The notes under the pieces are model-generated. The model did not search any database. It was given only the letters and a program-made list of their open reading frames with translations, and had not been told where the DNA came from. The position numbers were made by a program, and so were the translations under genes. Positions 12,220-63,482 of a stretch of DNA of 64,000 bases are shown here, piece after piece. Source of the DNA: Candidatus Zambryskibacteria bacterium RIFCSPHIGHO2_01_FULL_46_25 (GTDB lineage: Bacteria > Patescibacteriota > Minisyncoccia > Phycocordibacterales > Zambryskibacteraceae); contig MHVH01000005.1 in assembly GCA_001825155.1 (NCBI GenBank), forward strand, positions 3,528 through 67,527, in the 5' to 3' direction. Within the stretch, counting starts at the first letter, position 1. Every line of letters begins with the position of its first letter.

Positions 12220-13327
12220 AAAGGTTTACGTCGGACTCTCCGGCGGGGTTGACTCTGCTGTCTCAGCAGCTTTGCTTAAGGAGCAAGGTTTCGATGTGAC
12301 CGGCGTTTTTATTAAGGCGTGGCAGCCAGAATGGATGGCTTGCATTTGGCGTGAGGAGCGCCGGGACGCCATGAGAGTTGCTCTCGCGCTTGATATTCCA
12401 TTTCTTTTTTTAGATTGCGAGCGTGAGTACAAGCAGGCGGTAGTGGATAAGATGATTGCCGAGTACAAAGCGGGCCGCACACCGAATCCGGACGTGCTCT
12501 GCAATCGGGAAATCAAGTTCAGCGTCTTTTGGGAAAAAGCTCGCGAACTCGGCGCGGACTATATTGCAACCGGGCATTATGCGAGAAATCCCTCCCTGCC
12601 CCTCCCTTTGTCAAGGGAGGGGAATAAAACTGATACCCCCTTGATAAAGAGGGCTGGGGGATTGTGTGAAGGAGTCGACAAAGAAAAAGATCAAAGTTAT
12701 TTTCTCTGGATTCTGACCGAAAAGGACTTGTCCCACGTCATTTTTCCGGTGGGAGATTTGGAGAAGAGGGAAGTGCGAGAACTCGCGCAGAAATTCAAAT
12801 TACCCGTGGCGGAGAAGAAGGATAGCCAGGGTATATGCTTCATGGGTGATGTTTCCATGGAGGAATTTCTCTCCCACTATGTTTCCGCGAAGCCCGGCAA
12901 AGTTATGAACGCCGATGGAGAAGTGATAGGCAGGCACGAAGGTCTTGTCTACTACACTATCGGCGAACGGCGCGGCTTCGAAGTGACAAAAAAGAGCGCC
13001 GCGAGCGGGCCGTTCTATATTGTGGCGAAGGACCCGGACACGAATACTCTTGTCGTATCTGACAAAGAAGAAGAGATTCTGGAATTTTCTCCGACCAAAA
13101 TACTTTTGAAAAATGTTAATTGGATTAATGAGCCAGAGAATTCGGAAATTTCCGGCAGAGTCCGCTATAGGGGAGAGAAATTGCCTCTAAGGCTGTCGGT
13201 TGTGGGTCGTCGGTTGTCTGTTGAATTCAAGAATCCCGTTCCCGGCCTCTCTCTCGGTCAGTCGCTGGTCTTCTACGACGGCGAGAATTGCCTCGGCGGC
13301 GGCATCATGGACAAAGTTTTGGAATAA
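12188..13327 (+). CDS. mnmA: tRNA-specific 2-thiouridylase
   Basis: GLSGGVDS, TPNPDVLCN, ATGHYAR, KDQSYFL and DSQGICF. The exact start is uncertain. Confidence 0.95.
   Translation: MLPRSKNISSKKVYVGLSGGVDSAVSAALLKEQGFDVTGVFIKAWQPEWMACIWREERRDAMRVALALDIPFLFLDCEREYKQAVVDKMIAEYKAGRTPNPDVLCNREIKFSVFWEKARELGADYIATGHYARNPSLPLPLSREGNKTDTPLIKRAGGLCEGVDKEKDQSYFLWILTEKDLSHVIFPVGDLEKREVRELAQKFKLPVAEKKDSQGICFMGDVSMEEFLSHYVSAKPGKVMNADGEVIGRHEGLVYYTIGERRGFEVTKKSAASGPFYIVAKDPDTNTLVVSDKEEEILEFSPTKILLKNVNWINEPENSEISGRVRYRGEKLPLRLSVVGRRLSVEFKNPVPGLSLGQSLVFYDGENCLGGGIMDKVLE
12587..12663. repeat. 77-bp MITE-like element translated in frame within mnmA
   Basis: Reads AATCCCTCCCTGCCCCTCCCTTTGTCAAGGGAGGGG...CCCCCTTGATAAAGAGGGCTGGGGGATT. 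Both ends match the inverted repeats flanking the DUF559 gene at 42242-42673. Confidence 0.8.
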
Positions 13328-23214: not shown

Positions 23215-23237
23215 ACTTAGCTGTCCGACAGCTAAGT
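23215..23237. repeat. 23-bp palindrome ACTTAGCTGTC-C-GACAGCTAAGT, copy 1
   Basis: Perfect 11-bp arms. It recurs at 23579-23605 and 63372-63394. Confidence 0.85.
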
Positions 23238-23318
23238 TGTGTGAATTTTTGCAAAACGAAACCCCGTACCAGAGCCGAAGCTTAGTACGGGGCGTGGGAT
23301 AGGTGTCGGCGGCGGGTT

Positions 23319-23578: not shown

Positions 23579-23605
23579 GCACTTAGCTGTCGGACAGCTA
23601 AGTGC
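23579..23605. repeat. Palindrome GCACTTAGCTGTC-G-GACAGCTAAGTGC, copy 2 (inverted)
   Basis: Perfect 13-bp arms. The central base is complementary to that of copy 1. Confidence 0.85.
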
Positions 23606-23667
23606 TGAAGTGGAGGAATTCCAGTGGTTGAAGTTGCATATTATTTTGCCTAGAGCATACTAACATT

Positions 23668-42241: not shown

Positions 42242-42673
42242 AATCCCTCCAACCCCCCTTTATCAAGGGAGGTGAATCATGAAATACAATTTTATTCCAT
42301 ATGATAAAAATCTGGTACTCCGGGCCAGAGAATTAAGAAATAATCAAACGGAAGCAGAGAAATACTTTTGGACCAATGTTCTTAAAAGTAAAAAATTCAA
42401 GACTTTCATATTTTTGAGACAAAAACCGGTTGGAAATTTCATTGTCGATTTCTACTGCTCGCGTTTGTTACTCGGCATAGAAATTGACGGCCATATCCAT
42501 GACAAGAATAGGGATAAAGAAAGAGATAATATATTAAAAGAGAAATTCGGGATTACGGTCCTTAGGTATAGAAACGAAGATGTTATGGATAATCCTGAAA
42601 AAATTGTGAAAGACCTATTGCGACAAATGAAAGGTTGATCCCTCCCTTGATAAAGGGAGGGCAGGGAGGGATT
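42242..42673. mobile_element. Candidate DUF559-nuclease element with terminal inverted repeats of about 32 bp
   Basis: The left end is AATCCCTCCAACCCCCCTTTATCAAGGGAGG (42242-42272). The reverse complement of the right end is AATCCCTCCCTGCCCTCCCTTTATCAAGGGAGG (42641-42673). The interior is AT-rich. Confidence 0.65.
42279..42638 (+). CDS. DUF559 / Vsr-like endonuclease domain protein
   Basis: ARELRNNQTEAE..W, FLRQKP..FIVDFYC, IEIDG.IH, D.ERD and VLRY.N. Confidence 0.9.
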   Translation: MKYNFIPYDKNLVLRARELRNNQTEAEKYFWTNVLKSKKFKTFIFLRQKPVGNFIVDFYCSRLLLGIEIDGHIHDKNRDKERDNILKEKFGITVLRYRNEDVMDNPEKIVKDLLRQMKG

Positions 42674-45489: not shown

Positions 45490-45606
45490 ATGCTGAAGCC
45501 TTTTAAAATAATTTTATTCTTTTTTCTTGCAGTCATATATGTTCCGGCGTATTTGCTTATGCAGTTCACTTTCTCATGGTGGTCTGGACTTCTGGGAGGG
45601 GATTGA
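45490..45606 (+). CDS. Putative 38-aa membrane peptide
   Basis: MLKPFKIILFFFLAVIYVPAYLLMQFTFSWWSGLLGGD, starting just after the previous stop. Confidence 0.4.
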   Translation: MLKPFKIILFFFLAVIYVPAYLLMQFTFSWWSGLLGGD

Positions 45607-45692
45607 AGCGAATACTTGGAGCTTCAATCGGCCGGAAGCTGACGAGCTGAGGCGGGGTCGCGGAAATTTCTAGCAAGAAATTATCCGTGACT
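45601..45692. repeat. Structured multi-hairpin element, copy 1
   Basis: Shares the linkers GGCCGGAA, GAGGCGGGGTCGCG and CGTGACT, and covarying stems, with 47622-47718. Confidence 0.75.
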
Positions 45693-45757
45693 TGATTTTA
45701 ATAATAGAAAGGGCCGGCAGCGCATGCGCTGCCGGCCCTCGTTCGTTCGAAACCGCA

Positions 45758-46474
45758 CTACACGGAGAACTGGTGCGCCTTGATCTCCTCCTCGACGGCG
45801 GCCACTGCTGTCTTGGACCACATGCCCAACTCGCCGTACGCGTACGTGATGTCGAGGAGGTTGTAGACGACCACGATCTTCTGGAAGCCTGCCGCAGTCA
45901 GGCGTGGCACGGCACCCTGCTGGCGATCGATCCAGATGAGGCATGGCATCTCGTGCCCGGGGTAGCCGTCTTCGATACCTCGCTCCGCTGCGACGACTTT
46001 CGAACGTCCGTCGGTCACGACGTTATCGATCCACCAGTACTGATGGCGGGCCAGGTCCGGCCGACCGTTGATCCAGACTTTTTTGTGCGCGCCGTGCTGC
46101 TTCGGCTGCTCGCGCATCACTCGGTGCCCGATCGGCTGCGCCGTCCACGCCATCTCTTTCAGGAGGCTGAGGCTGCTAAGGGAGGCCGCCTGGGCGAGGG
46201 TGTTGCCGGCCACCGGCACGCCGATGAGACATTGCTGGCGGCTCTCATCGAGGTCGGTGTTGTCGTAGACGACCCGCGCCAGCTTCAGGCCGATGAGGCT
46301 CGCCAGCTGAGGGTTGTCGGTGAGATCTTCGCGACCGAAGACGTAGACGTGCGACATGATGCCGGATGCGAGCTTGAACGGCTCATCGCTGCGTCGCACG
46401 AATCCGCACTTACTCATCATGGCGAGGATGTCAAGATCCTCATTGGTATACTTAGCGCCGGATGGGACTTGCAT
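45758..46474 (-). CDS. pyrE: Orotate phosphoribosyltransferase-like protein
   Basis: FKLASG..S..Y, REQPKQHG and a PRPP-loop variant WIDNVVTDGRS. It is next to pyrF. Confidence 0.8.
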   Translation of the reverse strand: MQVPSGAKYTNEDLDILAMMSKCGFVRRSDEPFKLASGIMSHVYVFGREDLTDNPQLASLIGLKLARVVYDNTDLDESRQQCLIGVPVAGNTLAQAASLSSLSLLKEMAWTAQPIGHRVMREQPKQHGAHKKVWINGRPDLARHQYWWIDNVVTDGRSKVVAAERGIEDGYPGHEMPCLIWIDRQQGAVPRLTAAGFQKIVVVYNLLDITYAYGELGMWSKTAVAAVEEEIKAHQFSV

Positions 46475-46597
46475 GACAGATCTCCTCTCGAAACAGGATT
46501 AAACGATACGATCTAGGGCTAGACTATCAGATAAGGAAGGGAAGTCAAAAGGGCCGACAGCTACGCTGCCGGCCCTCGATTGTTGTTCTTGCTCGTT

Positions 46598-47503
46598 CTA
46601 CGCTGCCACGAGATAGTAGGGGATGTAGAGGTTGATCTCGTCGCGCGTCTTCTTCGCCGCAGCTCCCGGATCATCCGCGAAGATGATGCCGGAAGACGAG
46701 TTGATGGCGATGGAGCCTGCACCCATGTAGGCGGCCTTGACGGTTTCCTCGACGAAGCCGCTCTGTGTGCCAATGCCGGGGATGAGGAACCACAACTGGT
46801 TGCCGACGATTTCACGCCCCTTGACGAGATGTCGCGAGTAGATCGGTTCCGATGTGTACGGGCTCTTGTGTGCGGCGCCCATGACCACGCCGGCGTTCTC
46901 GAGAACGCCAAACTCGGTCGACCAGTCGAGGATGTCCCGAACCATCGCTTCCCAGACTATGCGCACGTCGGCAAGCAGTCGGTCTTGAACTCGCCACGCC
47001 GCAGGATTGCTGGTGCGGCCGAGGCCGACCAGCGCCCGGCCGGGGTACTTCGGGTCCACAAGGGCCTTGAGCGTGTCGGAGCCCATGTAACCGTTGTAGT
47101 TCATCCCGTCGACGCCGTCGAGAAGGAAGTGAGCGTCACGGTACTGACGCTGGGTGCGGTCGATGTCACCGCGCTTGCAGTCGAGGAAGACGGGGATGTC
47201 CGGGTACTTCTCGTGGATGTAGGCGACGATGGAGCGGAGTGCTTCCGCTCCTCCCACCAGTGCCTCCCAGTGGGCGCGCTGAGGCTTGAACATGCTGGCG
47301 TAGAGAGCGGTCGCATCGACGACACCCTTCATCCAGTAGAGCACCACGGTGCCTTGCAACTCCTCCGTGATGTCTTCCCAGGTACGGCAGCCGAAGTGGT
47401 CCAGAACTGTCTGGGGCACCTTCTCGAGAAGTGGGTCGAGGCCGACGCAGAGGAGGCTGTTGACGGCGATTTGACGAGCGGTCAGTGCGGCACGGAAGTT
47501 CAT
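46598..47503 (-). CDS. pyrF: Orotidine-5'-phosphate decarboxylase
   Basis: LCVGLDP, FKPQ, LDCKRGDI, RTSNP, GVVMGA, LIPGIGTQ and INSSSGIIFA. Confidence 0.92.
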   Translation of the reverse strand: MNFRAALTARQIAVNSLLCVGLDPLLEKVPQTVLDHFGCRTWEDITEELQGTVVLYWMKGVVDATALYASMFKPQRAHWEALVGGAEALRSIVAYIHEKYPDIPVFLDCKRGDIDRTQRQYRDAHFLLDGVDGMNYNGYMGSDTLKALVDPKYPGRALVGLGRTSNPAAWRVQDRLLADVRIVWEAMVRDILDWSTEFGVLENAGVVMGAAHKSPYTSEPIYSRHLVKGREIVGNQLWFLIPGIGTQSGFVEETVKAAYMGAGSIAINSSSGIIFADDPGAAAKKTRDEINLYIPYYLVAA

Positions 47504-47621
47504 ATCTAGGCTCCTTATTGATTGTGTGCGTTTCCTGCCCGCTACATTAGCAGAATGGACGAAAATAGGGAAGTGTGGTGCTTTTCGAAAAATGGGCATA
47601 TTCCCCTACCGCTGCGGTGGG

Positions 47622-47718
47622 GGAGAGGAGCGAGTGCTCGCAGCTCCTCTCGGCCGGAACTCACGCCGGTGAGTGAGGCGGGGTCGCGCAAAAACTCAGC
47701 AGAGTTTTATGCGTGACT
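47622..47718. repeat. Structured multi-hairpin element, copy 2
   Basis: Same architecture as 45601-45692, with compensatory stem changes. Confidence 0.75.
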
Positions 47719-47782: not shown

Positions 47783-47810
47783 AGTTCGTTTTACATATAT
47801 TGTGCGAACC
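47783..47810 (-). other. Candidate dif-like Xer recombination site
   Basis: The minus strand reads GGTTCGCACAA-TATATG-TAAAACGAACT (11-6-11). The left arm matches the E. coli dif XerC arm GGTGCGCATAA at 9/11. It lies 15 bp before the recombinase ATG. Confidence 0.55.
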
Positions 47811-47825
47811 TATACAATATAGAAT

Positions 47826-48788
47826 ATGAGCCGTCCCCTGCCAATAAAAGACTACATCCTCCCCTTCCTCGATTACTGCGAGATTGAAAAAGGTTTGTCG
47901 AACAATACGCAGAAAAATTATAAGCAGTATCTCCTACTCTTCATTCGCTGGCTCGAAAAAATTAGCGAATCGGATTTAAAGCCCGAGGACCTTACCCCCA
48001 AGCATATCTGGGATTATCGGCTCTATCTGGCTCGCGGCTATAAGGCTCCAGGAGGCTCGTTTCTCGGTAAGAAGAGCCAAAACTATTACCTCATAGCGGT
48101 TAGAAGCCTTTTAAACTATTTTGCCGAACATGATATCGTTTCGCTCCCCTCTTCGAAAATAAAATTGGCGAAGCAGAAATCTGAGGAAACAATTTCTTTT
48201 CTCGACACGAGCGACGTGGAGAAAATGCTCAAGATTCCGGACGTCTCAACTTTGGGCGGTTTGCGCGACAGGGCTATAATGGAACTCTTTTTCTCATCCG
48301 GAATGCGCATCTCCGAGCTTGTGGCTTTAAACGCCGATCAACTCTCCTTTCTCTCCGACAAGAAGACTGACAAGACCTATGAGCTCTCAATCATAGGCAA
48401 AGGCAAACACATGAGAACCATCTTCATCTCTCCTCGCGCGGCCGGGTGGCTAAGACAGTATCTTAATAAGCGTCACGACGTGCATAAGCCACTATTCCTT
48501 AACTCGCGACCGGATGATGAGGACAACAATCGCCTCTCTCCCCGCTCGATACAGAAAATGATTTCGCGTTGCGCCATGCTCGCCGGACTTTCTAAAAAAG
48601 TTACGCCTCACACTCTGCGTCATAGCTATGCGACTGATCTACTCTCCCACGGAGCGGACCTCCGAAGCGTCCAGGAGCTTTTGGGTCACAAGAATGTGGC
48701 CACCACTCAGATATATACCCACGTTACCAACAAACAACTCCGCGATATCCACGAGAAGTTCCATGGTGGACAAGATATGAAGAAATAA
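47826..48788 (+). CDS. Xer-type tyrosine recombinase
   Basis: RDRAIMELFFSSGMRISEL, IGKG, TPHTLRHSYAT and VQELLGH..TTQIYTHV. Confidence 0.93.
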   Translation: MSRPLPIKDYILPFLDYCEIEKGLSNNTQKNYKQYLLLFIRWLEKISESDLKPEDLTPKHIWDYRLYLARGYKAPGGSFLGKKSQNYYLIAVRSLLNYFAEHDIVSLPSSKIKLAKQKSEETISFLDTSDVEKMLKIPDVSTLGGLRDRAIMELFFSSGMRISELVALNADQLSFLSDKKTDKTYELSIIGKGKHMRTIFISPRAAGWLRQYLNKRHDVHKPLFLNSRPDDEDNNRLSPRSIQKMISRCAMLAGLSKKVTPHTLRHSYATDLLSHGADLRSVQELLGHKNVATTQIYTHVTNKQLRDIHEKFHGGQDMKK

Positions 48789-63228: not shown

Positions 63229-63300
63229 GGCCCTATCGTCTATCGGCTAGGACACAGCCTTCTCAAGGCTGGAAGCGGAGTTCGATTCTCCGTAGGGTCA
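63229..63300 (+). tRNA. tRNA-Glu (anticodon CTC), CCA not encoded
   Basis: Acceptor stem GGCCCTA/TAGGGTC, anticodon arm CAGCC-TTCTCAA-GGCTG and T arm CGGAG-TTCGATT-CTCCG. Confidence 0.95.
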
Positions 63301-63482
63301 TAAAAACATGTTATGTTTTTATGAGTCGCAGGCACGACGGTGCCGAGGCGTGACCACACAAGATTTGCCTTACTTAGCTGTCCAACAGCTAAGTTGTGAC
63401 ACACTATGATATATCATAGTGTCCTACGTTATCTTTTAGCTATAGCAGAATTGTAACGTATGTGAATTTTTGCAAACGCGAA
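63301..63482. repeat. Stack of different palindromic elements downstream of the tRNA
   Basis: Hairpins or dyads at 63301-63321, 63323-63355, 63372-63394, 63401-63422 and 63425-63460. Confidence 0.75.

Follow-up and report, generated by a model that had tools for sequence, protein, structure and literature searches.

The window analysed in this study is a 64,000-nucleotide stretch of the genome of Candidatus Zambryskibacteria bacterium RIFCSPHIGHO2_01_FULL_46_25 (contig MHVH01000005.1, positions 3,528 to 67,527 of the forward strand), in which a pyrE-pyrF block is flanked on both sides by direct copies of an element composed of three hairpins. The question raised by this locus is whether the two copies are the paired ends of a cassette served by the neighbouring tyrosine recombinase, as proposed in a first-pass annotation, or units that inserted independently of each other. 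The boundaries of the unit, the rule obeyed by its junctions, the covariation of its stems and the existence of empty sites were established directly, and the element is real and likely to be mobile. On balance, we favour the view that each of the two repeats is a copy in its own right of a gene-less miniature insertion element of Patescibacteria, which is mobilised in trans as a folded single strand of DNA and is led to its target by base pairing.

Structure, boundaries and junctions of the element

Both copies lie on the plus strand. In copy 1, hairpin A (45601-45629; stem A 45601-45609/45621-45629) consists of a carried target end and an arm, the final two bases of which pair with the two bases 5' of the junction. 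It is followed by hairpin B (45631-45653), with a GCC/GGC foot, a GGA/GA internal loop, a variable upper stem and a GACG loop, and by hairpin C (45657-45691), with a G.T pair near the foot, a conserved bulged A, an A/T-rich upper stem, an AGCA loop and the terminal GTGAC. The GCC and GGC linkers pair with each other. The corresponding structures of copy 2 are stem A (47623-47631/47643-47651), hairpin B (47653-47679) and hairpin C (47683-47717). The description of two direct copies that keep their linkers and swap their stems was confirmed at every position given in the first-pass annotation; its third stem was also correctly placed, apart from the last T, which belongs to the flank, as the element stops at GTGAC (ending at 45691 in copy 1 and at 47717 in copy 2). 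A repeat finder assigned both copies to families D10 and D12, and even in their best parts they are just 73-75% alike. Folding of the plus strand gave z = -4.74 for copy 1 and -4.65 for copy 2, and none of 200 shuffles equalled either value; the reverse strand also scored low (-5.55 and -4.74), with loss of the G.T pair of hairpin C.

In an alignment of 99 cores (97 distinct), 98.9% of the cells are paired and 12 of the 22 base pairs have changed on both sides, which bears out the earlier proposal that compensatory change reflects selection on structure. None of 500 shuffles scored as high, and slid alignments were only 30-49% paired. The 97 distinct homologues represent the short-core subset of 130 distinct elements; the invariant columns of the alignment are mostly imposed by the search pattern and are uninformative on structure. 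The core comprises 63 positions, preceded by a 5' end that varies with the target. In diverged members, recovered with a covariance model, the stem above the GTCG/GTGAC foot has changed, whereas the foot itself and, usually, the bulged A are retained. The last hairpin is preceded by an AGCCG-led hairpin in about half of the copies. Paired C-GNA-G mini-hairpins, the loops of which are specially stable in DNA, were found 92 times on the element strand vs 10 times in reverse orientation, and CTTCGG was found twice. In a group of variants (L187 and L188, at G000:C6:146-201 and 86201-86256, as well as L192, L197 and L207) a long outer stem encloses hairpins B and C, giving a three-way junction; these variants have no tRNA target.

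Read 5' to 3', the complete unit starts at a junction N1N2|N3 and comprises a carried copy of the downstream part of the target, a hairpin, a complementary arm, one spacer base, hairpin B and hairpin C up to GTGAC, beyond which the displaced end of the target follows. When the arm was compared with the right flank, a single offset formed a peak, at which 50 of 119 elements matched in at least five of six positions (0-1 elements at seven other offsets; this count leaves out 11 elements whose core start could not be recognised). Among the 74 elements for which an upstream partner was found, the arm is complementary to positions -1, -2, -3 and -4 in 64, 65, 3 and 4 cases, respectively. An independent set, from which 16 of 50 elements had been dropped because the core start was missing, gave an arm-flank match in 21/34 and complementarity at the same four positions in 25, 24, 0 and 1 of 26. 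Targets outside T-loops have a G at -3 (32/34) and a purine at -5 (34/34), and nine different N1N2 pairs occur overall. The target pattern, R-N-G-N1-N2, fits both targets in the window and also the right end of the element itself. Where the carried and displaced ends are discordant, the arm agrees with the carried copy at 36 of 37 positions, and its pairing reaches up to 30 bp into that copy. The displaced end matches the carried end at six or more of eight positions in 39 of 74 elements, i.e. it forms a direct repeat, and the inserts bounded by such repeats measure 84-352 bp.

The junction of copy 1 (45603-45691), GA|TTGA, falls within the last codon of a 38-codon open reading frame (ORF; 45490-45606, plus strand), which is kept in relatives and whose present stop is supplied by the element. 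Copy 1 is absent from all eight relatives read at this slot. In two of them (G020 and G042) the end of the small ORF directly abuts the spacer that follows the core in the host genome, which identifies copy 1 as an 89-bp insert with a four-base repeat, TTGA, found again at 45692-45695. Copy 2 (93 bp, 47625-47717; hairpin A 47623-47651) has the junction GA|GAG and no clear direct repeat on its right side. Its target is the G-rich 3' side of a C-rich/G-rich hairpin (47603-47623, plus strand), which is element-free in five relatives. Only one of eight relatives, G020, carries an element at this site; all of its stems differ from those of copy 2, and the two may go back either to one old insertion or to two. 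Independent confirmation of the right end came from contigs of other organisms in four metagenomes, which depart from the window directly after 45691 and 47717 (106 weaker loose ends were left out of the listing). The partial relative noted previously behind a tRNA gene proved to be real: positions 63299-63354 (plus strand), overlapping the 3' end of tRNA-Glu(CTC), hold an internally deleted copy that has kept hairpins A and B and lost hairpin C. Its undeleted counterpart stands behind a tRNA-Glu at locus L016.

Distribution and targets

The host genome (582 kb) contains five full copies, i.e. the two in the window and three on another contig, two of which sit behind tRNA-Ser and tRNA-Ile; the covariance model adds two weak relatives. 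A strict search pattern was matched in 11 of 41 genomes and in at least 119 GTDB stretches. The 80 record titles listed for these stretches name a group of Patescibacteria or of the candidate phyla radiation (CPR) in 69 cases and only 'bacterium' in 11. A looser pattern, applied to 201 genomes of a single order of ultra-small Patescibacteria, was matched in 144 of them (1 to 28 matches each), vs a single match for the control pattern; 57 genomes had no match to the element. A phylum-wide run of the covariance model detected the element in 6 of 151 genomes, which is an undercount, since only 35 candidates per genome were scored.

Neither IMG/VR (searched with the exact pattern) nor 50,697 phage records yielded a match. 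Within the window, only the tRNA model of Rfam 15 passed (tRNA-Glu), the best score for copy 2 being 14 bits, and in 20 homologous loci tRNAs alone reached the gathering threshold; the motif is unannotated in Rfam, as had been suggested. Literature searches for the element returned no description. Term searches in the accessible parts of 2026 preprints and Breaker-type surveys revealed no similar CPR or tRNA-trailer motif; the supplements, with their unnamed clusters and mobile or repeat candidates, lay outside this coverage and may hold it.

Altogether, 71 of 138 matches lie at most 400 nt behind a tRNA or tmRNA gene of the same strand (22 were too close to the edge of the locus to be judged), and tRNA genes are entered behind the T-loop. 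The remaining targets are rplL, 5S rRNA, polA, other gene ends and intergenic DNA. At seven loci the target is 5S rRNA, with insertions antisense near the 5' end in five and sense near the 3' end in two; the antisense insertions favour DNA as the target. In rplL and other genes the replacement 3' end restores the target. Comparison of the carried and displaced ends at ten rplL loci revealed 26 synonymous and 6 non-synonymous differences and 28 identical codons, and we read these pairs of ends as probably derived from two different genomes. Tandem stacks occur at L008, L076, L121 and L127. A sibling family was observed at two tRNA-Ser genes of the host genome (L302 and L303, at G000:C5:227200-227520 and 97500-97820), which have a shorter and different core within the same design: a carried end, an arm ending two bases past the junction and a displaced end.

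Possible mechanisms of movement

The element resembles repetitive extragenic palindromic (REP) sequences and bacterial interspersed mosaic elements (BIME), with their TnpAREP (RAYT) proteins (PMC8266576; PMC3733652; PMC6006769), in being short, multicopy, folded and strand-specific and in having a bulged stem. TnpAREP is reported to cut single-stranded REP substrates at CT, a dinucleotide that may be selected through being complementary to A3G4 in the GTAG guide 5' of the hairpin. A change of the guide shifted the site for one enzyme and failed to do so for two others, and TnpAREP of the E. coli type needs the stem bulge (PMC8266576). In the element, similarly, the two bases next to a hairpin foot can pair with the two that precede the junction; the likeness is one of sequence geometry. 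Since the element shares this guide geometry, with a variable dinucleotide, we favour a single-stranded DNA element mobilised in trans by HUH-like chemistry. It differs from REP/RAYT systems in that (i) the foot bears no constant GTAG or CGTC tag (GACG and GTAG occur as loops), (ii) the guide bases vary with the target, (iii) a gene end is carried, (iv) there are three hairpins and few copies per genome, and (v) no tnpA gene is flanked by the element.

The IS200/IS605 family and its non-autonomous derivatives (PMC8266576; PMC6006769) likewise have hairpins at both ends, one active strand and a precise right end. The target of the element is apparently chosen by DNA-DNA pairing, as in this family, and a G.T pair and a bulged A occur on one strand. 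By contrast, the element has no transposase gene, is directed to R-N-G-N-N with nine N1N2 pairs rather than to one fixed 4-5-mer, and leaves the direct repeat noted above, with arm pairing that extends well into the carried target copy. PATE is the name given to non-autonomous derivatives of this family.

In the favoured mechanism, a nicking and strand-transfer enzyme, most likely of the HUH (TnpA/RAYT) type, would bind hairpins B and C of what we infer to be a single-stranded DNA intermediate, cut after GTGAC and after N1N2, and exchange the ends, so that either a small circle or a one-ended transfer results. As a guide, the two arm bases would correspond to the AG of the REP sequence GTAG that selects CT. 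Variants with a spare gene end could enter the ends of tRNA, rRNA and rplL genes harmlessly and presumably travel between genomes, which would explain where the elements persist. The position of the two copies on either side of pyrE-pyrF would be due to a GGGGA target in each of the two spacers, which lie beside the replication terminus.

Several observations weigh against this mechanism. No enzyme is linked to the element: the 124 neighbouring ORFs include no transposase, integrase or reverse transcriptase, and only one Vsr, one GIY-YIG and one PD-(D/E)XK gene, the recurrent neighbour families being only host genes around recurrent targets. No core was found at the Y1 loci searched, which were the best-scoring of 313 matches (0/34 by pattern, 0/29 by the covariance model), or at 30 GIY-YIG loci, or beside the five Y1 genes of the host genome, which are accompanied by other palindromes instead. 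Across the 201 genomes, the association of Y1_Tnp with the element is weak (92/119 vs 52/82, p = 0.04, uncorrected for kinship), and among 19 element-rich genomes seven have no Y1 match and six have neither a Y1 nor a reverse transcriptase match. GIY-YIG, being present in 198 of the 201 genomes, is uninformative as a partner. The two-base rule is dominated by tRNA T-loops, with TT accounting for 37 of 74 cases. The TG|AG subfamily (L021, L071, L091 and L116) duplicates the 5' part of the gene or a more distant upstream site and is therefore not covered by a simple circle model. Contigs from 4 of the 20 listed DNA runs contained no excised or empty form, although contigs drop rare variants, and the synonymous differences in rplL would also arise if both ends were kept in use.

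Some related loci deserve mention in their own right. At L021, L071 and L091 the insertions lie in the 5' part of a gene for a glycoside hydrolase of family 1, the start of which is duplicated after the core. A family of 27-bp palindromes (23215-23241, 23581-23607 and 63372-63398) also flanks a RAYT-like gene at L179, and these are REP-like repeats of that gene. About 10 of the 30 small GIY-YIG loci (L272-L301) hold a tRNA-Gln gene; in several the two genes are directly adjacent, and one shows a duplicated tRNA 5' flank.

According to another proposal, these are selfish nucleic acids of about 90 nt that are re-aimed by swapping the arm, while the constant two-hairpin core catalyses strand transfer at R-N-G-N-N, or recruits a housekeeping enzyme for it, with no dedicated transposase. 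We consider this conceivable, if somewhat unlikely.

Movement at the RNA level appears unlikely. In this model a tiny intron- or ribozyme-like unit would attack, with its 3' end, the target junction that the arm holds in place, and a reverse transcriptase of the host or of the element would fix the unit in DNA. Group II introns, which comprise domains I-IV, start with 5' GUGYG and exceed 400 nt, have a bulged A in the last hairpin and a terminal AY. The element also has a conserved bulged A in its last hairpin and a terminal AC, although eight bases follow the A and the stem pairs to its last base; this hairpin, together with the AGCCG-led one before it, resembles domains V-VI of these introns. 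Further points in favour of such a unit are that the insertions are mostly sense to the host gene, as in the 71 matches behind same-strand tRNA or tmRNA genes, that the protein-level conservation of the displaced rplL ends fits their continued use, and that the G.U pairs fold well as RNA. However, the core is only 63 positions long, and its 5' end is target-dependent. A spare gene end would be needless for a spliced intron, and displaced and carried ends agree in no more than the 39 of 74 elements mentioned above. The antisense 5S insertions, the scarcity of UUCG loops and the lack of association with reverse transcriptase (RVT_1, 62/81 vs 82/120, p = 0.26) also argue against it, and E-value scans of the core against Rfam revealed no ribozyme or intron family.

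Mobilisation by a tyrosine recombinase, the element being a minimal att-type cassette moved in trans (an attC-like strand, or the remnant end of a tRNA island) that accretes at gene ends, is quite improbable. Elements that encode tyrosine integrases and target tRNA, tmRNA or rplL genes, together with their cis-mobilisable remnants, insert at the T-loop or in the final codons, repair the gene with the end that they bring and form tandem stacks. The element does the same, and integrases classically target T-loops and rplL 3' ends for which a replacement end is supplied. It differs from integrase-driven elements in its size (~85-350 bp), in the lack of an integrase among the 124 neighbouring ORFs, in the combination of an inverted arm with a direct repeat, and in the lack of an identical overlap across the junction, where differences often occur at +1 to +3. 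Among 196 elements, seven spans of more than 300 bp were considered as gene-carrying long versions; none was convincing, and none had a recognisable recombinase-like ORF. Moreover, the element is present at just 1 of 29 xer loci of relatives. With integron attC sites it shares a folded and strand-specific structure, an extrahelical base and covarying stems. Such sites are defined by RYYYAAC and GTTRRRY boxes, which are absent from both strands of both copies; nor is there a cassette array or IntI, and the hairpins are three in number. The suggestion of a folded single-stranded DNA recombination site was thus retained as regards the folded substrate, which is the favoured reading, and not supported as regards its attC-like nature.

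A host function, as a structured 3' trailer or small RNA involved in termination, processing or tRNA maturation, with gene-end copies generated by template switching, is very unlikely. The strong covariation and the location at 3' ends of highly expressed genes would suit this role, and the host (G000) and G020 may have preserved copy 2 from an old insertion, with compensatory changes in its stems. The sX4 family of Rfam (RF02223), which consists of tRNA-Ser followed by a trailer complementary to the 3' part of the tRNA, is similarly designed. On the other hand, element counts range from none (in 57 of 201 genomes) up to 28, the targets are varied and include antisense 5S rRNA and intergenic DNA, the junction rule is precise, and no T run follows hairpin C. 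Identity with sX4 itself was rejected, as the matches come from tRNA-Ser; they reach 37 bits, vs a cut-off of 70, and stop short of hairpins B and C. The arm design may exist outside Patescibacteria.

Returning to the favoured trans-mobilised element, the comparisons show that it lacks features that define attC sites, REP/RAYT systems, IS200/IS605 elements, integrase islands and group II introns, although it shares features with each of them.

The pyrE-pyrF slot and the significance of the element

The block between the two copies consists of a divergent pyrE-like gene (45758-46474, minus strand; TIGR00336, E = 5.5e-08, under the cut-off, with no Pfam or PDB match) and a pyrF gene of subfamily 2 (46598-47503, minus strand; TIGR02127, 140.8 bits, above the cut-off; PF00215). 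The direct orientation of the copies around this block, which has 61% GC in a window of 49% GC, and the variability of the slot among relatives are what speaks for a mobile pyrE-pyrF cassette with the copies as its paired boundaries. This interpretation is nevertheless highly improbable and was largely refuted by the relatives. In eight of them, the slot between a 92-aa gene and xer contains pyrE- or pyrF-like genes in six and murF-like genes in two (one of which also has pyr genes), and is empty in G044. Of the six relatives with pyr genes, five are free of the element and the sixth has a single one, none of the eight has copy 1, and the cargo-free G044, in which a single copy was to be looked for, carries none. 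In addition, the two copies have different targets and limited similarity, and the three further copies in the host genome lie elsewhere.

The pyr genes in the slot occur in either orientation and include pyrF subfamilies 1 and 2 and two pyrE types; several of these sets (window 45700-47600; L169-L176) end in a GC-rich terminator-like hairpin. In the slot before xer, at the terminus, one step of the pathway has been replaced repeatedly. The hairpin at 47603-47623 precedes xer in the host and in seven relatives with GC-rich or pyr cargo, though not in G044 and G016, and may mark the cargo boundary.

The part of cassette enzyme assigned to the adjacent recombinase (47826-48788, plus strand) was not supported either. 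The best models for this protein are XerC and XerD (all under the cut-off), it was matched in 31 of 37 genomes of the genus, mostly once, and the best stretch obtained with the integron-integrase model covers just 233-306. Directly upstream lies a putative dif-like palindrome (47783-47810, plus strand) that occurs nowhere else in the genome and is conserved in the seven closest relatives; the contig reaches its GC-skew maximum, a broad plateau, ~45 bp away. The recombinase is therefore likely to be a housekeeping chromosomal Xer protein that resolves chromosome dimers. A single recombinase linked to its own dif site has a precedent in XerS (PMC2731167), and this lineage probably has a terminus system of that style.

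Two further features of the window were noted. A DUF559 nuclease gene (42253-42665) is bracketed by short palindromic repeats, a third copy of which lies at 12601. Two pairs of AT-rich direct repeats (54580-54645/55306-55371 and 13365-13412/13991-14038) are 48-66 bp long, 83-86% alike and 600-700 bp apart; the former pair is located just beyond the starts of minus-strand ORFs, and such pairs may be promoters common to small gene units.

About seven in ten genomes searched in the order carry the element, even though they are among the most streamlined genomes known. In these bacteria it replaces the ends of genes for tRNA, rRNA and ribosomal proteins by alleles seemingly derived from other genomes, and it explains duplicated tRNA tails and assembly breaks, which could be mistaken for prophage att sites or noncoding RNAs. 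Given the junction rule (two paired bases, G at -3, purine at -5 and the GTGAC end), short oligonucleotides would suffice to test the mechanism. If the arm is indeed the guide, the element would represent a very small re-targetable insertion system. If, moreover, the arm is swappable and no dedicated transposase is involved, no smaller programmable insertion system would be known, and its design would be one that several unrelated cores appear to share.

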